From an uncultured Eubacteriales bacterium (lineage in GTDB: Bacteria; Bacillota; Clostridia; Peptostreptococcales; JAAYPU01), in the NCBI GenBank assembly GCA_964429195.1, contig CAYSBC010000003.1:729-64728 (forward strand): a stretch of DNA of 64,000 nt, written 5' to 3'. The notes under the pieces were generated by a model that saw only the letters and a program-made list of their open reading frames with translations, did no database searches and had not been told where the DNA came from. Position numbers and translations under genes: made by a program. This document shows positions 11,824 to 52,666 of this stretch, one piece after another (the first letter of the stretch is position 1; every line of letters starts with the position of its first letter).

Positions 11824-12090
11824 AAATAAAAATCCCCTACATGCTTAATACATGTAGAGGACGATATCTTCGCGGTGCCACCTCAATTGGTTTTAAAACC
11901 CTCTCATCAGATACAGGATAAATAACCGATATCTTAACTCTATAACGGGAGTTCCCGGGTTGCCTACTGTGATTCAGCTTCCACTCGTGAGCCCATTCAG
12001 TCTATACTTTGATACCACGTTTTCACCACCAGTGGCTCTCTTCAATCTCCGTAATAACCTACTATCCTCACTCATCGCTTTACTTATTGG
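11824..12090 (-). promoter_or_regulatory. T-box riboswitch leader, probable Trp (UGG) specifier, controlling trpB
   Basis: Read on the minus strand: GCGATGAG K-turn region; AGAGAG bulge (plus 12045-12050); GGTGGTGAAAA distal loop; specifier context GAA-TGG-G (TGG = plus 11993-11995); stem III GGTTTTAAAACC; T-box sequence GGTGGCACCGCG (plus 11871-11882). The terminator is CCTCTACATG/CATGTAGGGG followed by ATTTTTATTT. Confidence 0.9.
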
Positions 12091-36670: not shown

Positions 36671-38584
36671 CTATAAACCCATCTTTTCTCTTTTACTCAA
36701 AATATGAGCTTCAATATCTTTGGCAACTTGAACGGGATCATCGCCTAGCGCTACCTTCCCGCCTGTTAGCCCTTCCACATCTTCTGTAAGAAGTTTTACA
36801 AGATTAGGAGCCCCTGTAATAAATGGTGTCGGTGACAAATGGGTATAGGCCCCATAAGCTACAGTAAACAACCCATCAATGGTTGCCTTTTGTTCCATCC
36901 ATTCCGGTGCAGTGACAGCAATCGGCAGATCGGATATATCTGCATCGAGATGATCTGCCAAAGCAGTAACAAGCATAGATATTCTTCCCGTATCTGTGCA
37001 GGTCCCAAAGCTTAGAACAGGAGGAATGCCTAAGGCTTTACATACTCCTTTTAGTCCGTCCCCTGCTAACTCTATGGCATCTAAATTACACATTCCTGCC
37101 ACTTCCAGTCCATGATTACCACAACCACCTGCTACAACTAATATATCCTTTTTGATGAACTCTTTCGTAAGATTCACCGTGTTCCAATCTTGTGGACCAT
37201 TTCTCAAAGTAGAACAGCTTGCCAAAGCCACGATGCCTTTTATCTGTCCCTTTGCTAGGACATCCACCAAGACATTCAAGTCATTACCAATTGCTTTTAA
37301 AACAGCCTCCGTAGAAAAACCTGCAATGGCTTTTGTCTTATGATGGGGAACCATAGGTTTAATAACCCCGTGTCTCTTTTGGAAGTTATCAATAGCAATA
37401 TTAATGCAACTTTCTGCCATTTCATCCACTTTAGAAGGATAATAAGGCATCTCGTGCTCTGTTCCCGGCACACCGATAATCGTACTTACACTCACAAGAG
37501 CAAATTGATATTTTTCAGCATATTGATCCATAGCAGGAGGGGAACAATTTTCTTCGATAACCAAGGCATCCACAGTACCTGTTGCCAAGAAAGGTTCAAT
37601 CGCCAACCAATTTCCCATGAGCCCCACAAAAACATCGTCTACTTCAAATCTTTGTAACAACTCTTGTCCGGTCTCTATGGAACCGACAATGCGAATACCC
37701 TTTGCTCCTGCTTTTTTTGCCCGCTCTTGATAATCTTGTTTTCTAGCTTTTTGTAAGGCTGCTACGCCAACCCAGGGTTGATGTCCATTAAAAACAATAT
37801 TGACGTAATCAGGATCCATAATTCCCATATCCACATCCACTTCATGGGGCATAGGTGTTCCAAAGAGGATATCCTGAGTCATTTCTAAACCGATTTGTGC
37901 AGTGTAAATGGTAGATATACCTAACCGCAGTGCTTTCTTAGCCAAGGAAATATAATCACCATCAACATTTGTCAAGCAGCTGGCAATACAATTCTCCACC
38001 TCGTGTTGCACTCCTGAAGGGTACAGATTCAATTCTTGCCATAAGGATTTTCTCTTTTTGGGGGCAAAAGCCTCCATCATCATGCTTTTCTGGTCAGGGT
38101 TAATCTTCATCTCTTTATCTAAGAGTTCCGCCAATTGTATTGCTAATTGATTCACATCCTGTTTTGTATCGATGCCTACTTTTTCACACATCCATTTTAA
38201 CTTATCGGTATCCGTAATTTTAAAAGGTGTTTTCCCTTCTCCCGTAGCCTTGAGTGTTCTAAAAGCTTCAAAAGCATGATGTCCATAGGTTGCTGCTCCC
38301 ATAATGTTCCTCATGAGCAAACTCCTCATGGCCATGGCATCAGCATCTATACCGCAGACACCCTTGTCTGCACCTGCCTTGTCACTTATTCTGCATGGTC
38401 CATGGGTGCAAAGTTGGCAGCTGAGTCCTTGAAGGCAAAATTTACAGCGAATTTTCTCTTGGGCCTCCCATCTTGAAAATACGCTTGAAAGACCATCCTC
38501 CTTTATTCTTTTCAGCATTTCTTCTACGGAATCATGGTAGCTTACACGACCTTCTGTTCTCTCTAAAATAGTATCTGTCATCAT
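36671..38584 (-). CDS. CooS-family (anaerobic Ni-CODH scaffold) protein with a non-canonical active-site motif
   Basis: N-terminal Cys pattern CKFCLQGLSCQLCTHGPCRI and later SFGTCTDTGRI are CooS-like. Where I expect G-x-C-C-T-G-N-E, the sequence reads G-S-I-E-T-G-Q-E. Start set at MMTDTIL (38584), which has AAGGAGA upstream. Confidence 0.75.
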   Translation of the reverse strand: MMTDTILERTEGRVSYHDSVEEMLKRIKEDGLSSVFSRWEAQEKIRCKFCLQGLSCQLCTHGPCRISDKAGADKGVCGIDADAMAMRSLLMRNIMGAATYGHHAFEAFRTLKATGEGKTPFKITDTDKLKWMCEKVGIDTKQDVNQLAIQLAELLDKEMKINPDQKSMMMEAFAPKKRKSLWQELNLYPSGVQHEVENCIASCLTNVDGDYISLAKKALRLGISTIYTAQIGLEMTQDILFGTPMPHEVDVDMGIMDPDYVNIVFNGHQPWVGVAALQKARKQDYQERAKKAGAKGIRIVGSIETGQELLQRFEVDDVFVGLMGNWLAIEPFLATGTVDALVIEENCSPPAMDQYAEKYQFALVSVSTIIGVPGTEHEMPYYPSKVDEMAESCINIAIDNFQKRHGVIKPMVPHHKTKAIAGFSTEAVLKAIGNDLNVLVDVLAKGQIKGIVALASCSTLRNGPQDWNTVNLTKEFIKKDILVVAGGCGNHGLEVAGMCNLDAIELAGDGLKGVCKALGIPPVLSFGTCTDTGRISMLVTALADHLDADISDLPIAVTAPEWMEQKATIDGLFTVAYGAYTHLSPTPFITGAPNLVKLLTEDVEGLTGGKVALGDDPVQVAKDIEAHILSKREKMGL

Positions 38585-38671
38585 CCTATTCTCCTTTTTC
38601 AATGGTTTCCAAAAATCCACATTTTGAATAGTATGACCAGAATCATCCATTTCAATGCTAAGAATTGTACC

Positions 38672-40144
38672 CTAGGTACCACAAAATGTCCGGTAGGGCA
38701 CTGATGATGATGGGGGAGTAGCGCAGTATTCAGCTTCCACATTCCTGTGATCATAAGGCCTTGAAAGAACCTCTATCAGCTTTTCGAATAAATGATAATC
38801 TCCCTTTTCCGCCCCTCCTAGTGCTTCCTCTACCAGGTGATTTCGAGGTATCACAGCAGGATTAGAATGCATCATCAACTCTATTGATGCATCTCTTGAT
38901 TCCTTTTGTCGTCTTAACCTTTCTTGCCATCGTTTATGCCATTCTGTGAATTCTACAGCCTTCAATAAGTCCATATCCTCCGGCCTATTTTGTGTCAATA
39001 CTCTGAAAGTATTGGTATAGTCAGCCTCATGCTGATCCATGATGGCTAGAAGATCTTTAGCAAGTAACAGATCCTCATCCTCCTCGTTAAACAAGCCTAA
39101 CTTTGCTCTCATCCCTGTCATCCAGTGATGTTGATAGAGGCCATGAAAACCTTGAACAGCCTCCTCGGCTATTGGGATTGCTTCTTCTTGCTTGTCGTGT
39201 AATAAAGGTAATAAGGTTTCAGCAAATCGAGCTAAATTCCACGCTGCAATCCATGGCTGATTGCTATAAGCATAGCGCCCATGTCTATCAATAGAGCTAA
39301 ATACTGTCCCAGGTTTGTAAGTATCCATAAAAGCGCAAGGTCCATAGTCAATGGTCTCGCCACTGATGGTCATGTTATCCGTATTCATGACACCATGAAT
39401 GAAACCAACCAACTGCCATTTGGCAATCAAGCTTGCCTGGCGCTTTATTACTTCCTTTAAAAATGAAAGATATTGTTTCTCTCCATCATTACAATGAGGA
39501 AAATGCCTTCTTATTGTATAATCGACTAATATCTTAAGCTCATTTGCATCTCCCCATTGTGCAGCATATTCAAAGGTTCCCACCCTGATATGGCTTGCAG
39601 CTATGCGGGTTAAAATGGCTCCTTGTAAAATATTCTCACGAAAAATAGTTTCCCCCGTTGTCACTACAGCCAGACTCCTTGTAGTGGGTATACCGAGAGC
39701 ATACATGGCTTCACTCATGATATATTCCCGCAACATGGGCCCAAGGGCAGCTCGTCCATCTCCACCTCTGGAATAAGGCGTTCTTCCCGATCCCTTAAGC
39801 TGGACATCCAATCTTTCACCTGAGGGTGTTATCTGTTCTCCAAGCAATACTGCCCTTCCATCACCTAGCATTGTAAAATGTCCAAATTGATGTCCTGCAT
39901 AGGCTTGAGCAAGGGGTAAGGCACCTTCGGGAACTTGATTGCCTGCAAATACGGATAAAAATTCTTCCTTATTGAGAGCCTGTACATTTAATCCCAGTGC
40001 CTTTGCTAAAGGATCATTCAAGATGATCAGTCCCGGTGAAGAAACGGGAATGGGGTCCATTAAGGAAAAGAAGGATTGGGGTAAAGAAGCATAACTGTTA
40101 TCAAAATTCCATCCTGCCTTTAAACTTGATTTTTTTTCTTCCAT
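38672..40144 (-). CDS. selO: SelO/YdiU-family protein adenylyltransferase (AMPylase pseudokinase)
   Basis: 490 aa. YAGHQFG, LGDGRA and HGVMNTDN motifs typical of UPF0061/SelO. C-terminal ...RTFCGT has Cys where eukaryotic SelO has Sec. Confidence 0.88.
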
Positions 40145-40364
40145 AATCTATCCTTTCTCAATTTTTTTACTGCTATCATTATCCATTATTCTTCATTCTA
40201 ACCTATTCTTCTATAAATATAATTATAGTGTCTGTTTCTAAACATTTTTTATTCTTTCTTATATGCTGTTACAATGCTTCTTTATTTTGCTTCTAAAGCT
40301 TGTATATTCTGTTCTTTGTTTGTAAAAGATAACTGAAAATATGATTAGAGAGAAGGCAGAATAG

Positions 40365-41852
40365 ATGGCTATACAAAAACAAAAAATCTTCGCGAAAGAA
40401 CCTCAATCTTATTGGATTGATTCAATAACTCAACCGGAGTATCCTAGCTTAAAGGAAGATATCCATGCCGATGTTGCCATCATCGGTGGTGGTATTGTTG
40501 GAATTTCCACTGCCTATATGCTTAGCCAACATGGCATTAAAACGGTCATACTTGAGGCAGACCAAATCTTGCAAGGAACAACCGGCCACACAACAGCCAA
40601 AATAACATCTCAGCATGGATTAATCTATGATAAAATCAAAAAACAAATAAGTGAAGAATACGCAAAGCAATATGCCGATGCAAATGAAGCTGCAATTCAC
40701 ATGATTGAGAAGATTGCAAAGAAAAATAACATCCAATGCGATTATACCCCTCAATCTTCCTATGTCTATACTCTTCAAGAACATTATATTGATAAAATAA
40801 GAAGCGAAGTCGAAGCAGCCTCATCTTTAGGTATTAAAGCAACCTACTTAGAAGAAACCCCCTTACCTTTTCCTGTGAAGGCCGCTATACGATTTGATAA
40901 TCAAGCTCAATTTCATCCTCGACGATTCTTACTTCCTTTAGCAGAGAAGATAATAAGCCTTGGCAGTCAGATTTATGAGCAAAGTGCCATTGTTAATATC
41001 GAAGAAAATGAAAATGGACAATATACCCTCATAACGAAGGACGGAAAAAAGGTGAAAGCAGAAAAGGTTATTATCGCCTCTCATTTCCCTTTCTATAATA
41101 AACACGGGCTATACTTTACTCGAATATATCCGGAGAAATCCTATGTTGTTGCCATCAAGGCAAAAGAAAAATATCCCGGTGGAATGTATATAACAGCCGA
41201 AGATCCGGGTCGTTCACTTCGTAGCCAAATATCGGATCAAGGTGAGTTGATTTTTGTAGGAGGTGAACATCATAAGACAGGCCAAAGCGAGGATACTTTA
41301 AAGCACTATGAGGCTTTAACGGAATTTGCCCGTACTCACTTTACAGTAGAAAATCTTCCTTACCATTGGTCTACCCATGATTGCATGACATTAGATGGTA
41401 TACCCTATGTAGGTCCTTATACCTCCAAAACACCTCATCTGTTTATTGCAACAGGCTTTGGAAAATGGGGAATGACCAACAGCATTGCCTCTGCAATACT
41501 ATTAAAAGACCTCATTGTAAAAGGTGATTGCCCTTGGCAGGATGTCTATAATCCTTCCCGTCATACCTTCTTAGCCTCATCCAAAAACTTTATTATTGAA
41601 AACCTTAATGTGGCAAAAGAGCTTATAGGAGGCAAAGTCGCTTCCAATCTTTTAGATGGGGACATCGATACAACATGTACCCATATGGGTTGTGAATGTA
41701 CTTGGAATTCCGCAGAAAAAACTTGGGATTGTCCATGTCATGGTTCCCGGTTTACTTATGAAGGAGATGTGATTGAGGGCCCTGCCCTTAAGCCTTTAGG
41801 CTTCCACAGAAGTGTCAATACAGTTGAAAAACTGATAAAAGATGATTTTTAA
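40365..41852 (+). CDS. FAD-dependent oxidoreductase fused to a C-terminal Rieske 2Fe-2S domain
   Basis: N-terminal DVAIIGGGIVGIS dinucleotide fold. C-terminal CTHMGC...CPCHGSRF Rieske motif. Confidence 0.85.
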   Translation: MAIQKQKIFAKEPQSYWIDSITQPEYPSLKEDIHADVAIIGGGIVGISTAYMLSQHGIKTVILEADQILQGTTGHTTAKITSQHGLIYDKIKKQISEEYAKQYADANEAAIHMIEKIAKKNNIQCDYTPQSSYVYTLQEHYIDKIRSEVEAASSLGIKATYLEETPLPFPVKAAIRFDNQAQFHPRRFLLPLAEKIISLGSQIYEQSAIVNIEENENGQYTLITKDGKKVKAEKVIIASHFPFYNKHGLYFTRIYPEKSYVVAIKAKEKYPGGMYITAEDPGRSLRSQISDQGELIFVGGEHHKTGQSEDTLKHYEALTEFARTHFTVENLPYHWSTHDCMTLDGIPYVGPYTSKTPHLFIATGFGKWGMTNSIASAILLKDLIVKGDCPWQDVYNPSRHTFLASSKNFIIENLNVAKELIGGKVASNLLDGDIDTTCTHMGCECTWNSAEKTWDCPCHGSRFTYEGDVIEGPALKPLGFHRSVNTVEKLIKDDF

Positions 41853-42085
41853 AGTAAACATTCAACAATTTTATCGTGTTTAAAGTGATGCTTCTTCAAA
41901 AACTCCTCAAGAACATTTCTTTGTTCAAGACTTCCTTTCCAAGCCAACCCACATCCTGCTGAAATAGTAGGCGGTAAAGGAATGATGCGTCCTTTTAAGC
42001 CTTCCATTTTAGCAGTCTCTTCAAAGCCCATAGCTTCTGTCGTGGCTTGGAAGGTAATAAGCAAATACCTTTCTTTTTGTCTCAT
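41849..42085 (-). CDS. DUF3343 (putative Se/S carrier-like) protein
   Basis: 78 aa from MRQKERYLLITF. Conserved ISAGCGLAW Cys motif. Its ATG overlaps the stop of the upstream desulfurase gene (ATGA). Confidence 0.75.
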   Translation of the reverse strand: MRQKERYLLITFQATTEAMGFEETAKMEGLKGRIIPLPPTISAGCGLAWKGSLEQRNVLEEFLKKHHFKHDKIVECLL

Positions 42086-43224
42086 CGATTTTCTCCTTCC
42101 AATACCCATAGAGCATGTATAGCCTCATCAATGTCATCTACCCTATTAAAATGGGAAAAACTAAAACGCACCATGCCCTGTTCTAGAGTCCCAAATGCCC
42201 TGTGAACTTCCGGAGCGCAATGAGCTCCCCCACGGGTTGCTATTCCAAAACGCTGAAATAATTCATCCGCTAAAAAACCGGAATGTACATCTCTTAGATT
42301 AAGTGTAACGATAGGTGTTCTCACATCAGCATCATAATCCCCATACAAGATGATGCCGGGTAAATCTTTCACCCCATCCAAAAATTTTTTCGCAAGAAAG
42401 CTTGCTTCTTGAAATATCTTGTCTTGTCCAACTTCATTGAGATAATCGCAGGCTGCAGAGAGTCCGGCAATACCATGAGTATTAAGTGTACCTGCCTCAA
42501 GTGCCTCCGGTAAAAACCTTGGCATCTCATGGGAAAAACTATCTCCACCGGTTCCGCCCACCTTAAGGGGATTTGGCATCACTCCATCAGCTAAACATAA
42601 GATACCTGTGCCTTGAGGCCCCAGCATACTTTTGTGCCCTGAACAACAAAGTGCTGAAATGCCACTTTCCTCTAAATGAATAGGTAGAAGCCCTGCTGTC
42701 TGAGAAGCATCTAGAATAAGTAACAAATTATGCTTTTTACATAGCTTGCCGACTCCCTCTAAATCTTGGACATTGCCTATGACATTGGAGGCATGATTCA
42801 TGATCACAGCCTTCGTTTCCGGGCATATTTCTGCCTCAATAGCACATGTCTGAACATACCCTTTGCTATTGGCAGGAACAGTTGTCACCTTAACACCCTG
42901 CTTTTCCATAAGATAAAGAGGTCTTAATACACTATTATGTTCCAAAGATGTGGTTATACAATGGTCCCCTTCCTGAAGAAGACCCTGAATAGCAATATTT
43001 AAACTTTCTGTTGCATTGAAAGTGAAGACAACACGAGAACAATCATCCATGCGAAAAAAATCAGCAATTTTTTTCCTTGTTTGGTATACCATGCGACTTG
43101 CCTCAAGAGATACACCATGGGCCCCACGCCCACTATTGCCGGATCCCTTTAGGGCATGGCATACCGCTTCTATCACAGCCTCCGGCTTATGAAAAGAGGT
43201 TGCTGCATGATCTAAGTAAATCAT
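42082..43224 (-). CDS. class-V aminotransferase: cysteine desulfurase / selenocysteine lyase family (NifS-like)
   Basis: 380 aa. MIYLDHAATS start, PLP-lysine context SGHKSMLGPQG, C-terminal GGAHCAP active-site Cys loop. Confidence 0.85.
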   Translation of the reverse strand: MIYLDHAATSFHKPEAVIEAVCHALKGSGNSGRGAHGVSLEASRMVYQTRKKIADFFRMDDCSRVVFTFNATESLNIAIQGLLQEGDHCITTSLEHNSVLRPLYLMEKQGVKVTTVPANSKGYVQTCAIEAEICPETKAVIMNHASNVIGNVQDLEGVGKLCKKHNLLLILDASQTAGLLPIHLEESGISALCCSGHKSMLGPQGTGILCLADGVMPNPLKVGGTGGDSFSHEMPRFLPEALEAGTLNTHGIAGLSAACDYLNEVGQDKIFQEASFLAKKFLDGVKDLPGIILYGDYDADVRTPIVTLNLRDVHSGFLADELFQRFGIATRGGAHCAPEVHRAFGTLEQGMVRFSFSHFNRVDDIDEAIHALWVLEGENR

Positions 43225-45309: not shown

Positions 45310-45406
45310 TGGCGGGAGCATGTGGGAATCGAACCCACCCAAGGGGTCCTTAACCCCTCGAACCGATTTTGAAGACCGGCGATAACACCAGCTACCATCT
45401 ACTCCC
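45310..45406 (-). tRNA. selC: tRNA-Sec (anticodon UCA)
   Basis: Minus-strand read: GGGAGTAGATGGTAGCTGGTGTTATCGCCGGTCTTCAAAATCGGTTCGAGGGGTTAAGGACCCCTTGGGTGGGTTCGATTCCCACATGCTCCCGCCA. Anticodon loop is CT-TCA-AA. Long variable arm (GAGGGGTT..GACCCCTT), GGTTCGATTCC T-arm, encoded CCA. About 97 nt. Sits 33 nt downstream of selB. Confidence 0.93.
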
Positions 45407-45439: not shown

Positions 45440-47338
45440 CTAATTTGTAAATAAAACTCTCCAATCTTCTTTCTTTATTGTTATCTTTTGTTCATCGAAA
45501 TATTCTAACAGGGGTAAGGCATATTTTCTTGAAGTTTCTAATAAATCGCGAAATTGCCCCAGTGTAATCGATTCATTTTCTCGAATAAATGACTTGATCT
45601 CCGATAAGGCCTTTTCATAAAAAAAACGATGTAAATAAATATTGGAATCGATTTTTATTAAGATTCCTTCCTTCACCAAATCTTGTATGATTTGCATCAC
45701 CTCTTGGGGATCTTGAAAAGACTTGGCTACATCTGTGATAAAGGGAACCATCCATCCCCCTTGATAATATGTCTCTTCTACCTGCCCTTTTATTTTCTTC
45801 TGTTCTTCTGTATAGCTTTTTTTAAAAGCAGACAAAGCAACCCTTTCATCTTGTATGATAATCTTCCCTGCTGTGTGAAAATATTTCAGTATGGAGTCCG
45901 CCCATTTATTCTTGCCTTTAAATAGTCTGTTGCGACATTCTTCTAAACTCATTCCTAGTCTAAGAGAATTTTCTTCATGATACTCTTTTAATATTGTTTC
46001 AAGATTGGTTTCTAATGCACGGAGAATGGTATGATGAAAGGCTAAATCTTTTGTTATCATTATGACTTTCTTTTCCTTAACCAACTGCTCTATACACTTC
46101 TCTGCTTGTGTGCCTTCTTTCCCCAATTGTTTCACAATAGAGCTTAAAGGTTTAAAGGTAAGACTATATTTCTTTATAAAGATTTCTAGGATGTCTTTTT
46201 CCGAACCGGTTTCTAACAATTTCAGTTCTTCTATAGCTACTTTATCATAGGGTTTATGTTTTTTAGGATTGGCATCCAGTACAATGCCACCCCCTATGGT
46301 TTCCACCGGAGAATAAAATCTTATCACAAAATAATCACCTTTTTTAGCGGCAATCTTTTCCTCTAATCGTACTTGGGCATAGCAACTTTCACCGGCTTTT
46401 ATAAGCTCTTTATTGAGTATCATGACACGACATAATACTTGGCTTGTACCGTGATAAAGAGAGACTCTTGTATTGTTTTTGAGCTCCCTATCGGTATTTT
46501 TTAAAAGATCTAATCTTACATCGAGCATGCTTGTCTCTTCCATTGAATCTTTTTCCGCTAAAACATAGCCTCTTTGAATCTCATCTTTTTTAATATTTGC
46601 TAAATTAAGAGCTACCCTCTGACCCGCAAAGGACCCTTGTGCCTTTTCACCATAGACCTGTATATTTCTTATTTTAGCAGATTGACCGGTTGGATAAACC
46701 ATCACTTCATCGCCACTTTTTAAACTTCCTTCTGTCTGTGTACCTGTAACAACTGTACCGAATCCGTCTATAGTAAATAGCCTATCTATAGGGAGTCGAA
46801 AAGGTGTATTGTTGCTTTTCACCCTAATATCCTGTGTCATCTTAATAATTGCTTCTTTTAATGTTTCGATTCCTTCGCCATGAACAGAGGATACAGGAAT
46901 AAGAGGTGCATTTTCAAGAAAAGTACCCCTGATCTCCTCTTTGACTTCTTCCTCCACCATTTGCAACCATTCATCATCAACAATATCTTTTTTGGTCAAC
47001 ACAACAAGGCCATGTTGAATATGGAGTATAGATAATATATCAAGGTGTTCTCTAGTTTGGGGCATAACGCCTTCATTTGCCGCTATAACCATGAGAACTA
47101 TGTCTATTCCACCGATACCTGCCAGCATATTCTTTATAAATTTTTCATGACCCGGAACATCAATAATACCAGCCTTTTCGCCATTAGGGAGGTCAAAGAA
47201 TGTAAATCCTAATTCGATTGTAATGCCGCGTTTCATCTCTTCCTTAAGATGATCTGTTTCCCTGCCCGTTAACGCCTTGATTAAGGATGTTTTACCATGA
47301 TCAATATGTCCTGCTGTTCCAATGATAATACTCTTCAT
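45440..47338 (-). CDS. selB: selenocysteine-specific translation elongation factor
   Basis: G-domain AGHIDHGKTSL, DVPGHEKF, TKKD. Long C-terminal winged-helix extension. Start set at MKSIIIGTAGH (47338), 10 nt after the selA stop. Confidence 0.93.
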   Translation of the reverse strand: MKSIIIGTAGHIDHGKTSLIKALTGRETDHLKEEMKRGITIELGFTFFDLPNGEKAGIIDVPGHEKFIKNMLAGIGGIDIVLMVIAANEGVMPQTREHLDILSILHIQHGLVVLTKKDIVDDEWLQMVEEEVKEEIRGTFLENAPLIPVSSVHGEGIETLKEAIIKMTQDIRVKSNNTPFRLPIDRLFTIDGFGTVVTGTQTEGSLKSGDEVMVYPTGQSAKIRNIQVYGEKAQGSFAGQRVALNLANIKKDEIQRGYVLAEKDSMEETSMLDVRLDLLKNTDRELKNNTRVSLYHGTSQVLCRVMILNKELIKAGESCYAQVRLEEKIAAKKGDYFVIRFYSPVETIGGGIVLDANPKKHKPYDKVAIEELKLLETGSEKDILEIFIKKYSLTFKPLSSIVKQLGKEGTQAEKCIEQLVKEKKVIMITKDLAFHHTILRALETNLETILKEYHEENSLRLGMSLEECRNRLFKGKNKWADSILKYFHTAGKIIIQDERVALSAFKKSYTEEQKKIKGQVEETYYQGGWMVPFITDVAKSFQDPQEVMQIIQDLVKEGILIKIDSNIYLHRFFYEKALSEIKSFIRENESITLGQFRDLLETSRKYALPLLEYFDEQKITIKKEDWRVLFTN

Positions 47339-47348
47339 GACTTTATCC

Positions 47349-48764
47349 CTACACTTTTTGTATACTATCAATCGCCCGGATAAGATAAGGTAATGCCTCT
47401 TCTTCAATAGTCCTGCAATCTAAGAGGATAGCACCCCTATGAATACGTGCAATAATGGGAATAGATTGATTTCTTAAACTTCCTTCAAAGTCATTAACAC
47501 TTTTTAACAGAGGCTTTATTTGTATCAAAAAGCTGGGCAATTCATGTAATGGCAAGGAACCACCACCTATTTGAGAAAAGCCTTCTACTAAAGACACCTC
47601 CATATTTTCGAAATGCTGAAGTGCACTCCATATTTTAAATGCTTTTTCCCTTATTTCTTTCTTATCCATGGTCATCATCTTGAGTGTCGGAATTTTTTCA
47701 AGTGGAGCTCCCGAAAAATATATTTGCAGAGTTGCCTCAAGTGCCGCTAAAGTTAATTTATCAACTCTAAAGGCTCTGGCGAGTGGATTTTCTTTCATCT
47801 TTTCTATCCAATCTTTTCTCCCAATGATGATACCCGCTTGAGGTCCTCCCAATAATTTATCTCCGCTAAAACAAATGATATCCGCACCCGTTTCCACACT
47901 TTCTTTAATGGTCGGTTCATCAACAATGCCATATTCTTTAAGGTCCATTAAGCATCCGCTACCCAAATCATGAATGACAGGAATGTTGTAGGTCTTACCC
48001 ATGGCAGCTAATTCCTTTAGACCCACCTCCTCAGTAAAGCCTAAAATCCTGTAATTGCTTGTATGTATTTTTAGGAAAGCTCCTGTATTTTCAGCATCTA
48101 TTACTTTCATATAATCACTTAGATGTGTTTTATTGGTAGTCCCCACTTCTTTTAATCTGGTTCCACTTTGACTCATAATCTCAGGAATTCTGAATGACCC
48201 TCCAATTTCTACAAGCTCACCTCGGGATACGATAACTTCTTTATCCTTTGCCAGTGTATTCAGTATGAGCATGATGGCTGCTGCATTGTTATTGACGACA
48301 AATGCTGCTTCCGTTCCGGTAAGTTTTGTTAGCATTTTTTCTATAGGATCATAGCGTGAGCCTCTTTTCCCTTGATCTATATCATATTCGAGATTGGAAT
48401 AATGACCTGCTATATCAAAAATATGCTCTTTTATTTCATCAGCTAATAGCGCACGGCCAAGATTGGTATGCAATATAATCCCAGTTGCGTTGATAACCTT
48501 TCTTAAGCCCCATTGCTTTCTTTCTTCTATTTCAAAAACGATTTCATCTAATAAATCCTGCCGATTGAAGATGTTCTCCGAAACCATGCCCTCTGATATA
48601 GCGGATAACATCTTGTTTCGCACTTTTTCTATTTGGTCACGGATAATATCAGTCATTCTCTTGCGTGATATTTGATCATGATAGAATTTGATTTTCTCAT
48701 CCATGAGTATTTCATCAACCTTGGGTAATTGTCTCAACCATTCTTTTTTATCCATTTTTATCAC
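47349..48764 (-). CDS. selA: L-seryl-tRNA(Sec) selenium transferase
   Basis: 471 aa. PLP-lysine motif FSGDKLLGGPQAG and SRGELVEIGGSFRIPE. Confidence 0.93.
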   Translation of the reverse strand: MIKMDKKEWLRQLPKVDEILMDEKIKFYHDQISRKRMTDIIRDQIEKVRNKMLSAISEGMVSENIFNRQDLLDEIVFEIEERKQWGLRKVINATGIILHTNLGRALLADEIKEHIFDIAGHYSNLEYDIDQGKRGSRYDPIEKMLTKLTGTEAAFVVNNNAAAIMLILNTLAKDKEVIVSRGELVEIGGSFRIPEIMSQSGTRLKEVGTTNKTHLSDYMKVIDAENTGAFLKIHTSNYRILGFTEEVGLKELAAMGKTYNIPVIHDLGSGCLMDLKEYGIVDEPTIKESVETGADIICFSGDKLLGGPQAGIIIGRKDWIEKMKENPLARAFRVDKLTLAALEATLQIYFSGAPLEKIPTLKMMTMDKKEIREKAFKIWSALQHFENMEVSLVEGFSQIGGGSLPLHELPSFLIQIKPLLKSVNDFEGSLRNQSIPIIARIHRGAILLDCRTIEEEALPYLIRAIDSIQKV

Positions 48765-48790: not shown

Positions 48791-48822
48791 AATAAAAACC
48801 CTCTCTTTTGGTCCAAGAGAGG
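48791..48822 (-). terminator. rho-independent terminator between the HesB-like genes and selA
   Basis: Minus strand CCTCTCTT-GGACCAA-AAGAGAGG followed by GTTTTTATT. It ends only about 27 nt before the selA start codon. Confidence 0.75.
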
Positions 48823-48854: not shown

Positions 48855-49133
48855 TCATACTGTGACTGTAAAGCCTTTATTAAACCAACCTTTGGAGTAA
48901 TCAATGTTCAAATTTCCAAAATGATCTAACAAATCCTTTTCAACTAGAATCTCTATATCGTCAATTTTTTCAACAACGTCTTTTTCCTCATCCTTTGTCT
49001 TGTCCAAGACAATCCCAAAACTGGGACCACCTCACCCAAAAGATTGGAATACAATTCTGACGAAGCTCTTTTCATTATTCTCAAAGTACTTATTCAGTTC
49101 TTCTTTTGCTTTTATTGATAGACTTATACCCAT
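48855..49133 (-). CDS. HesB/IscA-like selenoprotein, copy 1 (92 codons, in-frame TGA at codon 34 = 49032-49034)
   Basis: Not in the ORF track. Minus-strand translation: MGISLSIKAKEELNKYFENNEKSFVRIVFQSFG-U-GGPSFGIVLDKTKDEEKDVVEKIDDIEILVEKDLLDHFGNLNIDYSKGWFNKGFTVTV. AAAGGAGGA RBS 8 nt upstream. Protein-level conservation with copy 2 continues past the TGA. Confidence 0.85.
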
Positions 49134-49150
49134 TATACACCATCCTCCTT

Positions 49151-49447
49151 TCAAGAATTTTGAGCACGAATACCAAATGTAACTAAAAAACCTTTATTGA
49201 ACCAACGTAAATAATCAATTTTCAAATTCCCAAAACGATTTTTTAAGTCTTTTTCAACGATTATCTCTATATCGTCAATTTTTTCAACGTAATCCTTTTC
49301 TTCATTCTTTGTCTTAACCAAGACAACCCCAAAGATGGGACCGATTCATCCAAAAGAGAGTAATACAATTCTGGCCATGTTCGTTTCATCATTCTTAAAT
49401 CGCTTATATAATTCTTCTCGCGCTTTTTTTGTTAGGATTATACTCAT
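49151..49447 (-). CDS. HesB/IscA-like selenoprotein, copy 2 (98 codons, in-frame TGA at codon 34 = 49346-49348)
   Basis: Not in the ORF track. Translation: MSIILTKKAREELYKRFKNDETNMARIVLLSFG-U-IGPIFGVVLVKTKNEEKDYVEKIDDIEIIVEKDLKNRFGNLKIDYLRWFNKGFLVTFGIRAQNS. GAGGGAGGGTGG RBS. Same TGA position as copy 1. Confidence 0.85.
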
Positions 49448-49561: not shown

Positions 49562-50455
49562 CTAGATAGAAAATAAAATCATATACACAGGAATTGTAAT
49601 CAAGGAGAAGACAGTGGACATGAATGTTCCTTTTGCGGCAAGTTCTTTGTTACCATCGTAGGTAATGCAAAGCATAGAAACATTGCTGGCTACAGGCATA
49701 CTTGTTAGAATCACGCAAATACCTAAAATCATAGGATCTTTTACAAAGAACTGCAGGACAAGCCATACCATAAAAGGCAAGAGTATGAGCTTAGTAAATG
49801 ACATAATATAAAGCATTCTGTCTTTTAAAACACTTGTTATGCTGACTGCCCCTAACGTGGAACCTAATGTTATCATGGCCAAAGGTGAAGTGATGCTTCC
49901 TATGGTGTCTAGAAATTTTGTGATTACCTCCGGAACAGGAAGTGCAAAATTAAAGATAAGAATAGCCAATACCGCTGCTATAATACCCGGATTCAATAAT
50001 TTCTTGAGTTGAAGCTTGGCTTCTTTTTGGAGAACCGAAACACCATAGGAAAATACACTTAAATTAAAAATAATCATAAATAAGGATGTGTAAAATGAGC
50101 CTAAACCGCCATACAAAGCTGTCATGATAGGAAAACCCATGAACCCCAAGTTAGGATAGGTCAACATGAGTTTATAAGTATCATCCGTCTTGAAAATTTT
50201 CTGAAAAACCGCTGCAAAAAAAGGTGTAAAGATAAAAATACCGGCGGCTAATGCGAGCACATAAAATGCAGTCATACGATTCTCCGTATCCTGCCCTATG
50301 GCAGAAGCAATAATCGATGCGGGTAAGGTTATCTTGAGTAGAAAACCGGAAAAATATTTATCAGAAACCGTATCCAGTAGGCCCAGTTTATTGCATATAA
50401 ATCCTAGAGCAATAAAGCCAAACAACAGGCATAATTGCATCACAATAGCGTTCAT
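49562..50455 (-). CDS. AEC (auxin efflux carrier) family transporter
   Basis: 297 aa, about 10 TM. AEC-like N-terminus. Confidence 0.75.
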   Translation of the reverse strand: MNAIVMQLCLLFGFIALGFICNKLGLLDTVSDKYFSGFLLKITLPASIIASAIGQDTENRMTAFYVLALAAGIFIFTPFFAAVFQKIFKTDDTYKLMLTYPNLGFMGFPIMTALYGGLGSFYTSLFMIIFNLSVFSYGVSVLQKEAKLQLKKLLNPGIIAAVLAILIFNFALPVPEVITKFLDTIGSITSPLAMITLGSTLGAVSITSVLKDRMLYIMSFTKLILLPFMVWLVLQFFVKDPMILGICVILTSMPVASNVSMLCITYDGNKELAAKGTFMSTVFSLITIPVYMILFSI

Positions 50456-50502: not shown

Positions 50503-51189
50503 TTAAACAAAATAGGAACCATAGGCTCTATTCACATCTTGAACAATAATCAGACCCCTATCTCCCTTGTCCAATTCAAGCTTTTTCCGTACATTGTTTA
50601 CAATGCCTTCTGTATCATTTTCCTGAGACAAAATGATGACTATTTCTTTTTCAGGCTCTATCACCATATTAAACACTTTTGCTGTTTCATGTATCCCAGC
50701 ACCTCTTGCATTGATTATGGTTCCACCCTTTGATCCAGCCTCATTAGCCGCTTCTATAACACGTTCCGCATCCCCTCTGTTTACAATAGTCGTAATCAAT
50801 TGAAACATTGGCTTTTCCACCCTTCCTTCCCTTTCAAAAGTATCCTTACAATCATTACAGTAGTTTTCTCCAACAATACCGCATGCACTCGTACTAAAAG
50901 CAATGCCTTGATTCGGAATTGTAAACTGAAACTCCTTATTCAATTCAATTAAAGTATTATCGGCCGTATCCTTATCGGCTCCCATCATGACTATTTCCTT
51001 GTCATTATATAATCCTAAAAAATTAAAAACAGAACTCTTTCCGCTACCTTTTCCTAGCATGATGACACCACCTAAAACACCGTGTTTTTTTGCCTCCTGC
51101 AAAACCTTGCTGCCCATTCCACAGCTTGTTATCACATACATTATTTCAAAGGCCGATGAATGATTGCTAAACAACATCTTTTTCTTCAA
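50503..51189 (-). CDS. tandem P-II-like (nitrogen-regulatory-protein-like) domain protein
   Basis: 228 aa with two roughly 100-aa halves, each resembling a P-II fold (YVITSCGMGSKVLQEAKKHGVLGGVIM... and LITTIVNRGDAERVIEAANEAGSKGGTIINARG...). Overlaps the DUF1538 gene. Confidence 0.65.
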   Translation of the reverse strand: MKKKMLFSNHSSAFEIMYVITSCGMGSKVLQEAKKHGVLGGVIMLGKGSGKSSVFNFLGLYNDKEIVMMGADKDTADNTLIELNKEFQFTIPNQGIAFSTSACGIVGENYCNDCKDTFEREGRVEKPMFQLITTIVNRGDAERVIEAANEAGSKGGTIINARGAGIHETAKVFNMVIEPEKEIVIILSQENDTEGIVNNVRKKLELDKGDRGLIIVQDVNRAYGSYFV

Positions 51190-52666
51190 CTCCTTTTGGT
51201 TTTGACTTTATTTTATAAACCGCTCCCAGTGCCCCTAGTGTTAAAATGGAAGTCATGGCTATTGTTGCAAGCATACCAAAGCCATCCCTCATTAAATCGG
51301 CTCCTTCATAGGCTTGAGCAGCCCCTTGAATAAATGCCAGTATAAATGTTGCAGACATAGGACCTGTCGCTACACTCCCCGCATCAAATGCAATGCCTAT
51401 AAAAAGCTTCGGTATAAAAAACATCATCATCATACAGATCAAATATCCGGGAAGCAAATAATGCCATAATTGAATTTCAGGAGTTAAAATTCGAATAACC
51501 GAAAGAGCTACAGCTAACCCCACACCCAGTACCAATGCCACTAAAACAGCTTTCTTCTTCACATAACCACTGGTGACATTCTCAATTTGATGGGTGAGTA
51601 TATAGACAGAAGGTTCTGCCAGAATAGTGACACAACCTAATACAAAACCAAAGACAAGGATAAGCAATTGATTGTCCAATAAGGCTAAATTATGCCCTAT
51701 AGTTGCTCCGATGTCCATAAACCCTGCCTGAACACCCAGTAAAAATAAGAATAAACCGACCAGCGCAAAAACAAAGCCTACCATGAATTTGAGCATCGTT
51801 TTTTTGTCTAGTTTCAAAGAAACTTGATGCAATACCAAAAGTATTATAAATAATGGGAAAATAGCTATAAAGCTTTCCCTGAGGATATCCGGTAAGATAT
51901 TCGTAAAGGAATGGATGACAGGCTCTGCATTGGAAGCTTCCACATTGAGCTCAGCGGTAGAAGGTCCACTGGATTTCGACAACAAATTTAGAATCATAAC
52001 CGATAGAATAGCACCTGTCGAAGTAATGGCGACCAATCCGAAGCTGTCTTTTTCGGAGGCCTTGCTATCCTTTTTCAACCTTGAAACACCTGCAGAAAGG
52101 GATAGGATAAATGGAACAACAAGAATGCCTGTTGCTGAAGCTGATGAATCAAAAGCTATAGCTAGAAATTCACGGGTGGTATATAGGGCCAGTACAAATA
52201 TCAGCAAAAATATACCGATAAGTATTTTATAGAGGGGGACATTGTAAAAAATTCTTAAAAACCCCAGAGATAGCATAATCCCCATACCCAATGACACAAA
52301 AATAAGTATGGTGATACTTGATATTTTCCCCATATTAATGATACTGATTTGTTTGGCCAAAACCAATAAACTGGGTTCTGCAACAGTAATGAAAAATCCA
52401 AGTATCAGCCCGGAAATCAAAACTATCCATAGCCTATTGGATTTAACAAGGGATGTACCCAATAATTCTCCAAGAGGTATGATTCCAATGTCGACACTCA
52501 ATAAAAAAATAGTCAGTCCCAAAATCACAGCCAAGGAACCCCATATAAATCTGGCCATCAGGGTTGCATCCATCGGAGAAAATGTAAAATTCAGTATTAA
52601 AACTAATGCAGTAATCGGCAGAACCGAAGATAACACTTCTTTAAACTTCAATAGAATAGCGTTCAA
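51167..52666 (-). CDS. DUF1538-family membrane protein (double-length, internally duplicated)
   Basis: 499 aa polytopic protein. Two similar halves each contain ...EPS(L/V)..L..QI... and ...FDS(S/G)(A/S)(A/V)TGP/I... motifs. Confidence 0.65.
   Translation of the reverse strand: MNAILLKFKEVLSSVLPITALVLILNFTFSPMDATLMARFIWGSLAVILGLTIFLLSVDIGIIPLGELLGTSLVKSNRLWIVLISGLILGFFITVAEPSLLVLAKQISIINMGKISSITILIFVSLGMGIMLSLGFLRIFYNVPLYKILIGIFLLIFVLALYTTREFLAIAFDSSASATGILVVPFILSLSAGVSRLKKDSKASEKDSFGLVAITSTGAILSVMILNLLSKSSGPSTAELNVEASNAEPVIHSFTNILPDILRESFIAIFPLFIILLVLHQVSLKLDKKTMLKFMVGFVFALVGLFLFLLGVQAGFMDIGATIGHNLALLDNQLLILVFGFVLGCVTILAEPSVYILTHQIENVTSGYVKKKAVLVALVLGVGLAVALSVIRILTPEIQLWHYLLPGYLICMMMMFFIPKLFIGIAFDAGSVATGPMSATFILAFIQGAAQAYEGADLMRDGFGMLATIAMTSILTLGALGAVYKIKSKPKGVEEKDVV

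Follow-up and report, generated by a model that had tools for sequence, protein, structure and literature searches.

Introduction

Hairpins with G-rich loops are well established as bacterial selenocysteine insertion sequence (SECIS) elements. The SECIS of Escherichia coli fdhF has a bulged U in its stem, a minimal hairpin located 11 nucleotides (nt) after the UGA codon and G-U in its loop, and the SECIS elements of E. coli fdhF and Moorella thermoacetica fdhA show GGUC-type loops, which are bound by the C-terminal winged-helix domains of the elongation factor SelB. Here, we analyse a stretch of 64,000 nt from an uncultured Eubacteriales bacterium of the Peptostreptococcales (assembly GCA_964429195.1, contig CAYSBC010000003.1, positions 729 to 64,728; the whole stretch is called the window in the following), in which two tandem HesB/IscA-like genes, copy 2 and copy 1, each contain an in-frame UGA followed by two adjoining hairpins, helix 1 and helix 2. 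Sequence comparison suggests helix 2 being very probably a functional SECIS through which the UGA at codon 34 would be decoded as selenocysteine (Sec) in these two previously unannotated genes.

The apical hairpins of the window resemble the fdhF and fdhA elements in that their small loops carry a G on the 5' side, and domains corresponding to those that bind these elements are present in the SelB of the window. Unlike fdhF, they lack a bulged U and start 19 nt instead of 11 nt after the UGA. Compared to the fdhF and fdhA loops, the copy 1 loop GGAC has no U after the GG, a U at this place being found only in copy 2, and compared to their stems the window stem consists entirely of A-U, G-C and U-A pairs with only two G-C pairs.

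The bacterial SECIS (bSECIS) model of Zhang and Gladyshev (2005), as summarised in PMC13188914, comprises a loop of 3-9 nt starting with G followed by G or U, an upper stem of 4-16 base pairs (bp), a distance of 16-37 nt between UGA and loop and a minimum free energy (MFE) of -7.5 kcal/mol or lower. Measured against this summary, both window copies are alike in having a 4-nt loop, a 7-bp stem, a GG start and a 26-nt spacing, and in being coding-region stem-loops right after the UGA with a structure conserved in homologous selenoprotein genes. They are unlike it in that helix 2 alone misses the limit of -7.5 kcal/mol and in the presence of a second covarying hairpin, which is not part of the model as outlined there. 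HesB-like selenoproteins are a family known since the mid-2000s (TIGR01911) and marked by the motif U-x-G-P (PMC1794560, PMC13188914). What is new, with both HesB-like selenoproteins and bacterial SECIS already known, are these two unannotated genes and a register-shifted variant of the hairpin.

Two tandem HesB/IscA-like genes with paired hairpins behind an in-frame UGA

Copy 2, the upstream gene (49447-49151, minus strand), and copy 1, the downstream gene (49133-48855, minus strand), would encode HesB/IscA-like selenoproteins of 98 and 92 amino acids (aa), respectively, with the UGA read as Sec. Copy 2 starts with the ATG 49447-49445 behind GGAGGG, has its Sec-UGA at 49348-49346 and ends with the stop TGA 49153-49151, all on the minus strand; the corresponding signals of copy 1 on the same strand are the ATG 49133-49131 behind AGGAGG, the Sec-UGA 49034-49032 and the stop TGA 48857-48855. 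There is one in-frame TGA per copy, at codon 34 in both, the reading frame is open across it, and a Shine-Dalgarno sequence is present solely at the true 5' end of each copy. The stop TGAs were considered as second Sec codons and rejected, the frames beyond them hitting the next ribosome-binding site or a terminator and being without homology.

A preceding sequence-only reading had proposed conserved hairpins behind both UGAs as candidate SECIS elements. The coordinates and both helices that it gave for copy 1 match the minus-strand sequence (GGTGG-TCCCA-GTTT-TGGGA-TTGTCTT-GGAC-AAGACAA after the TGA 49034-49032), as do its helix 2 coordinates for copy 2 (ATCGG-TCCCA-TCTT-TGGGG-TTGTCTT-GGTT-AAGACAA after the TGA 49348-49346). 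In copy 1, helix 1 is a 5-bp mini-hairpin UCCCA-GUUU-UGGGA (49013-49026, minus strand), which lies 5 nt behind the UGA and directly adjoins helix 2, the candidate SECIS with 7 bp UUGUCUU-GGAC-AAGACAA (48995-49012, minus strand; tetraloop 49005-49002). In copy 2, helix 1 is the mini-hairpin UCCCA-UCUU-UGGGG with U-G as its fifth pair (49327-49340, minus strand), and helix 2, again the candidate SECIS, is the 7-bp UUGUCUU-GGUU-AAGACAA (49309-49326, minus strand; tetraloop 49319-49316). The 7-bp helix is identical in both copies and, as had been claimed, its apical loop is equally distant from the UGA, helix 2 following after 19 nt and the apical loop after 26 nt in both. All differences between the copies within the 45 nt after the UGA fall at unpaired positions.

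Both helices are found in the MFE structures of the 45-nt folds of both copies and of the 60-nt fold of copy 1, so that the folding proposed earlier holds for these. It does not hold in full for the 60-nt fold of copy 2, in which helix 2 is retained and helix 1 is displaced by other pairing; the pair probabilities of copy 2 amount to 0.76-1.0 for helix 2 and, in the 60-nt ensemble, to about 0.05 for helix 1.

Conservation and covariation of the hairpins across the family

We scanned metagenomes with a degenerate TGA-containing DNA pattern, which returned at least 120 loci with approximately 117 genuine family members showing the motif ...G-U-[GSA]-G-P-x-L-G-[LM]-A-L-D-E...; a plasmid collection gave no match. 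The family counts (n=117; 115 distinct sequences) refer to the UGA-containing homologues among the matches listed, and column counting starts at the U of the UGA. The family consensus hairpin reads UGGCUCUGGAUGAGCCA, in which helix 2 is formed by columns 23-28 with 34-39, giving the consensus (U)GGCUC-UGGAU-GAGCC(A). Helix 2 is 96.5% paired (n=115 distinct sequences) and shows changes on both sides at four of its six pairs. Column 26 with column 36 is C-G in 107 and U-A in 8 of the 115 sequences with no mismatch, and in the U-A form an Ala-to-Val exchange is always accompanied by a silent change from GAG to GAA. Sliding the partner by 1-3 columns lets pairing fall to 23-52%, and none of 500 shuffles, which ignore phylogeny, matches the observed covariation.

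The synonymous sites within the hairpin are nearly invariant. Codon 42 ends in U and codon 43 in G in 117/117 members, Leu43 is encoded by CUG in 115/117 and Glu45 by GAG in 109/117; elsewhere, third positions hold little information, around 0.1 bit with a range of about 0.05-0.4 bit. The GG at +30/+31 is invariant, being present in all 117 family members and in 9/9 sequences of the close-relative set. Helix 1 is formed by columns 9-12 with 18-21, and the Pro (CC) and Gly (GG) codons dictate its two inner pairs. Its free positions nevertheless covary: the codons Gly36 and Gly40 have pairing third bases in 74/115 sequences compared to 42 expected, and within the G/C class the combinations GC (32) and CG (12) stand against GG (3) and CC (4; Fisher p = 4e-6).

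RNAalifold, run unguided, predicts both helices from the family alignment and helix 2 also from the alignment of the close relatives. A covariance model built from the 115 metagenome sequences only, excluding the window, gave as its sole significant matches in a search space of 128 kb the positions 49034-48981 (39.5 bits, E 1e-5) and 49348-49295 (27.3 bits, E 2e-3), scores which include coding-sequence similarity. Orthologues lacking any structure at this position had been named in the sequence-only reading as an observation that would speak against it; both orthologues and more distant homologues have a hairpin at the same codons, with compensatory changes and an invariant GG in the loop.

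A register-shifted variant in the window and its closest relatives

The closest relatives of the window copies are seven genes (L125a/b, L127, L128, L130a/b and L133; L numbers denote homologue loci) with 47-59% protein identity to them. In these seven and the two window copies the register is shifted by 1 nt, so that columns 23-29 pair with 34-40 in a 7-bp stem and the 4-nt loop is GGNN, observed as GGAC, GGUU, GGCU, GGAU and GGAA, with the GG staying at the same two columns as in the family form. The variant helix is 96.8% paired across the nine sequences. Column 26 with column 37 is C-G in the seven relatives and U-A in the two window copies, corresponding to Ala42/Ala46 versus Val42/Thr46, and column 25 with column 38 is G-C in seven and A-U in one of the nine. 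The homologue of L004 (approximately 50% protein identity) has the family register with an all-A/U stem, UUGUUU-UGGAU-AAACAA.

The window hairpins share with the family SECIS the position with respect to both the UGA and the G-x-x-L-D-E/K codons, the GG at +30/+31 and the preceding mini-helix of Pro/Gly codons, in the same protein family with U-x-G-P. They differ in stem length (7 bp compared to 6 bp), in the loop, which has 4 nt (GGAC, GGUU) and not the 5 nt of UGGAU, in the A/U-rich and much weaker stem (-4.9 kcal/mol) and in the encoded residues, I/V-V-L-D/V-K-T-K in the window compared to L/M-A-L-D-E-P in the family.

Loss of the hairpin in Cys-containing relatives

At two loci, L043 and L108, a Cys paralogue adjoins the Sec form and has the same A-L-D-E residues (tandem Cys+Sec pairs; L043 1493-1780 and 2021 onward, L108 approximately 1909-2193 and 2608 onward). 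The codons are GCU-UUA-GAU-GAA in the L108 paralogue and GCG-CUU-GAC-GAA in the L043 paralogue compared to GCU-CUG-GAU-GAG in the Sec forms, and due to this different codon choice both the hairpin and the GG are gone. A genome-contig scan with Cys at the Sec position returned solely Cys homologues of Desulfitobacterium (L001-L003). These share the protein family and the GFG-C/U-GGPSFG motif with the window genes and helix 1 is still predicted in them; unlike the window genes they have UGU (Cys), helix 2 is degraded and the GG is lost in 2/3. According to PMC1794560 (Fig. 4b), the Cys HesB-like gene of Desulfitobacterium hafniense goes back to a recent conversion of Sec to Cys and retains a remnant SECIS-like structure, and we dropped the Desulfitobacterium Cys forms as a clean negative control for this reason.

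These results bear on an explanation according to which the hairpins are functionless by-products of the Pro and Gly codons and of a recent duplication. The copies are approximately 75% identical in DNA, and a structure-free stretch, VEKIDDIE, is as identical between them as the hairpin region, where 9/9 codons of conserved residues are identical, a result with a chance probability of about 7% as judged from synonymous divergence elsewhere. The earlier argument from a helix that stays identical despite diverged neighbouring codons is therefore correct as to the identity and by itself weak evidence, because the copies are recent paralogues. The inner helix-1 pairs are moreover forced by the Pro (CCN) and Gly (GGN) codons of G-P-x-F-G, and the folding scores against shuffled sequences are modest. 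Against this, a by-product would leave the invariant synonymous sites, the compensation at four of six helix-2 pairs, which is seen also among the closest relatives, the absence of the hairpin in Cys paralogues with the same peptide and the complementarity of the free third positions in helix 1 (p = 4e-6) to coincidence, and we consider this explanation highly improbable and already largely refuted. Taken together, the covariation in the family, the invariant synonymous sites and the loss of the hairpin in Cys paralogues suggest that the 7-bp hairpin is likely the SelB-binding SECIS.

The encoded proteins

The motifs at the UGA, S-F-G-U-G-G-P in copy 1 and S-F-G-U-I-G-P in copy 2, place U-x-G-P at the conserved Cys position of HesB/IscA proteins, and the UGA aligns with the Cys of GFGCGGPSFG and GCSGP homologues, Cys being found at this place in the Desulfitobacterium homologues and in the L043 and L108 paralogues. 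With Cys substituted for Sec in the scoring, the best-matching families for both copies are NF038090 (IscA_HesB_Se) and TIGR01911 (HesB_rel_seleno). Alignments with UGA-containing relatives cover 98-100% of the length at 40-59% identity, with profile-search E values of 1e-30 to 1e-38. Our data suggest the window proteins being divergent members of the HesB-like selenoprotein family.

Comparison of the window copies with each other gives an overall dN/dS of 0.28 and a value of 0.11 for codons 48-91, which follow the SECIS. The low value past the UGA indicates that the frame there is translated and under strong constraint. The genetic code appears to be standard and not reassigned, since TGA is the ordinary stop of 7/50 large open reading frames (ORFs) in the window.

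In protein databases the family is mostly stored as C-terminal fragments of roughly 55-60 aa or as full-length proteins with Trp at the Sec position. The codon is TGA in 12/12 Trp-bearing proteins whose contigs were fetched (loci L004 and L125-L136), and none of these loci yields the stored protein on translation, so the Trp is explained by translation of TGA as Trp (code 4) in metagenome gene calling. In the public record of the window, a Peptostreptococcales metagenome-assembled genome (MAG), the two genes are likewise represented only by the parts following the UGAs, each listed as 'hypothetical protein' (MFA5527228.1 with 56 aa for copy 2 and MFA5527229.1 with 50 aa for copy 1).

As an observation on the homologue loci, a small glutaredoxin gene lies beside or near the HesB-like selenoprotein gene at L004 (456-689), L134 (6875-7105) and L136 (722-952). 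This proximity in several unrelated contigs may point to a functional link.

Weighing the SECIS assignment

Several results weigh against the assignment of helix 2 as SECIS or against intact selenoprotein genes, and we collect them here. As to the proteins, NF038090 (cut-off 85) gives 65.5 for copy 1 and 44.6 for copy 2, and TIGR01911 (cut-off 66.35) gives 55.7 and 37.9, respectively, both copies thus staying below both cut-offs; for Pfam PF01521 (Fe-S_biosyn; gathering threshold 26.3 bits) the scores are 34.7 for copy 1, which passes, and 22.3 for copy 2, which does not. The C-terminal Cys tail (...GGSSC) present in nearly all of the approximately 120 relatives listed is absent in both copies, which end in ...GFTVTV (copy 1, 48855-48870) and ...TFGIRAQNS (copy 2, 49151-49190), almost all relatives ending in ...S-C. 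The sub-cut-off scores and the missing tail together imply that the copies could be decaying genes; with the tail missing, Sec would be the sole Cys-like ligand, so that the proteins may also work differently. The dN/dS of 0.11-0.28 argues against decay. In addition, no selD was seen within the 64-kb window.

As to the RNA, the z-scores against shuffled sequences are modest, folds of 60 nt giving -0.5 to -1.7, those of 45 nt -1.2 and the 32-nt unit of both hairpins -2.2 to -2.5, and folding energy alone is weak evidence. Helix 2 alone has -4.9 kcal/mol, short of the bSECIS limit of -7.5 kcal/mol, which is reached only if both helices are counted (jointly -11.2 and -10.9 kcal/mol). In copy 1 the energy of a competing extended hairpin of 12 bp differs from the MFE by no more than 1 kcal/mol, and the pair probability of helix 2 in the free RNA is about 0.57. 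Searches with Rfam 15 gave chance-level matches only at the window sites; for the homologues, the SECIS sites searched at 12 loci gave none. As to the sampling, the scan pattern (GGN TGA NNN GGN CCN ... YTN GAN RAN) itself fixed several columns of the alignment, and the shuffle control on the family alignment leaves phylogeny out of account.

The protein results could be read such that the UGAs are true stops, the genes being broken remnants or encoding 33-aa peptides plus separately initiated C-terminal fragments, which would be in line with the public records holding C-terminal fragments only as well as with the absent Cys tail and the sub-cut-off scores. Such a reading is at odds with the open frame, with the dN/dS of 0.28 overall and 0.11 past the UGA, with the UGA occupying the family Sec position in more than 120 homologues, with Shine-Dalgarno sequences at the true 5' ends only and with the Sec machinery encoded adjacent to the genes; we regard it as extremely improbable.

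The folding results raise the question whether SelB would bind helix 1 or the extended hairpin instead of helix 2. In the extended 12-bp hairpin (49006-49033), the 5' arm of helix 2 is paired with the last two bases of the UGA and with the codons behind it; besides being near the MFE in copy 1 this hairpin is the MFE structure in L125 (2214-2241) and L130a (2368-2395), and helix 1 covaries in the family. A conserved role of the extended hairpin was considered and rejected, its pairing being broken at position 35.1 in 32/117 members (U opposite C), and the invariant GG sits in the loop of helix 2. Helix 1 has loops (GUUU, UCUU, variable in the family) without a conserved G, lies 10-13 nt after the UGA and thereby outside the range of 16-37 nt, and would have its 5' arm inside the ribosome with the UGA in the A site. 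Either structure being the SelB target is thus very unlikely, and the comparative data suggest helix 2 rather than helix 1 as the likely SelB target.

The SECIS candidacy proposed for the hairpins of both copies by the sequence-only reading is supported by the MFE folds, the covariation in homologues, the alignment with Cys proteins, the loss in Cys paralogues, the adjacent Sec genes and the dN/dS of 0.11.

A model for decoding of the UGA

According to the model we propose, SelB with GTP and Sec-tRNA(Sec) would bind the apical helix 2 via its C-terminal winged-helix domains and would deliver Sec-tRNA(Sec) once the UGA enters the A site. Ribosome structures place the 9-12 nt following a UGA in the A site in or at the mRNA channel. 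As the 5' arm of helix 1 would be located there, helix 1 must be open at this stage, leaving helix 2 as the only fold (-5.6 kcal/mol). Helix 1, covarying across the family, may be an accessory part, which could act as an insulator against mis-pairing of the helix-2 arms, as a spacer or as a pause for the approaching ribosome.

Stimulators of frameshifting and read-through sit about 5 nt past the codon, at the ribosomal mRNA entry. A more far-reaching version, in which the GG hairpin and the mini-hairpin 5 nt after the UGA form a bipartite recoding signal and the two such signals upstream of selA-selB-selC in this genome additionally exert feedback on expression of the Sec machinery, appears doubtful to us as a whole; if the bipartite signal were true, the mini-hairpin might be needed for ribosome pausing or spacing.

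Genomic context

The Sec machinery is encoded directly downstream of the two genes, the order on the minus strand being copy 2, copy 1, selA, selB and tRNA-Sec. The gene selA encodes L-seryl-tRNA(Sec) selenium transferase (47349-48764, minus strand; Pfam SelA, 520 bits) and selB the Sec-specific elongation factor (45440-47338, minus strand; Pfam GTP_EFTU, Beta-barrel_SelB, SelB-wing_2 and SelB-wing_3), located 1.5 kb downstream of the HesB-like genes. With its C-terminal winged-helix domains SelB-wing_2 and SelB-wing_3, the SelB of the window is of the SECIS-binding type. The tRNA-Sec has the anticodon UCA (45310-45406, minus strand; ARAGORN; Rfam RF01852, 71.4 bits). No further selenoprotein candidates with in-frame UGA for a comparison of SECIS elements were found within the 64-kb window.

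The copy 1 stop is separated from the selA start by a terminator-like hairpin, CCUCUCUU-GGACCAA-AAGAGAGG (48794-48822, minus strand), which by sequence reading and folding consists of an A-tract, the CCUCUCUU/AAGAGAGG stem and a U-tract. A simple terminator scan left this hairpin unflagged and flagged helix 1 of copy 2 instead.

This arrangement would allow for an additional role of the hairpins as a SelB sink or sensor regulating selA-selB-selC and coupling expression of the Sec machinery to its own capacity, by analogy with the selAB leader of E. coli, which contains a SECIS-like element. The two SECIS-bearing genes share their strand with selA and precede it by 90-600 nt, with the terminator-like hairpin between copy 1 and selA, and neither selA nor selB was found beside the homologues in any of the 133 loci examined (median locus length only 3.6 kb), making the linkage special to this genome. 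The short loci render the missing linkage only weakly informative. The same observations also speak against such a role, the arrangement occurring in no second genome among the loci examined and the terminator-like hairpin suggesting separate transcription units; furthermore, the hairpins are outside the selA ribosome-binding site. We judge a regulatory function of this kind, in addition to recoding, to be very improbable.

Tandem arrangements are also found among the homologues, with Sec+Sec pairs at L125 (2114-2413 and approximately 2606-2905) and L130 (2268-2567 and 2776-3078). The window copies are each other's closest relatives (68%), implying that the tandem duplications are independent or were homogenised by gene conversion.

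The region downstream of tRNA-Sec (36671-43224, minus strand) contains first an EcsC-family gene, a DUF1275 gene, an unassigned 129-aa ORF and a class-V aminotransferase gene, a close cluster member of the aminotransferase being named selenocysteine lyase/cysteine desulfurase. Farther on follow a 495-aa ORF on the opposite strand (40365-41852), a gene of the YdiU (SelO) family and the gene of an anaerobic CO dehydrogenase catalytic subunit. The aminotransferase and YdiU genes may be related to selenium metabolism. On the other side of the HesB-like genes, a gene for a DUF1538 membrane protein and a 228-aa gene whose product carries a P-II-like domain at its C-terminus overlap each other (50503-52666, minus strand), this pair lying upstream of an AEC-family transporter gene (49562-50455). 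A T-box leader (11854-12084, minus strand; Rfam RF00230, 109.5 bits) is located upstream of a 396-aa ORF.

Significance

Our analysis leaves the current understanding of Sec decoding unchanged. It corrects the annotation of a Peptostreptococcales MAG, in which the 'hypothetical' fragments of 50 and 56 aa are halves of two selenoprotein genes, and it points to a systematic mis-translation hiding a large selenoprotein family, hundreds of members being mis-stored with Trp or as fragments. The SECIS of the family is alignable, with 115 sequences, covariation and an invariant GG; no Rfam model exists for it and the alignment could seed one. The A/U-rich variant of the window shows the SECIS sliding by 1 nt against the reading frame with the GG fixed, which provides a data point on how SelB reads its target.

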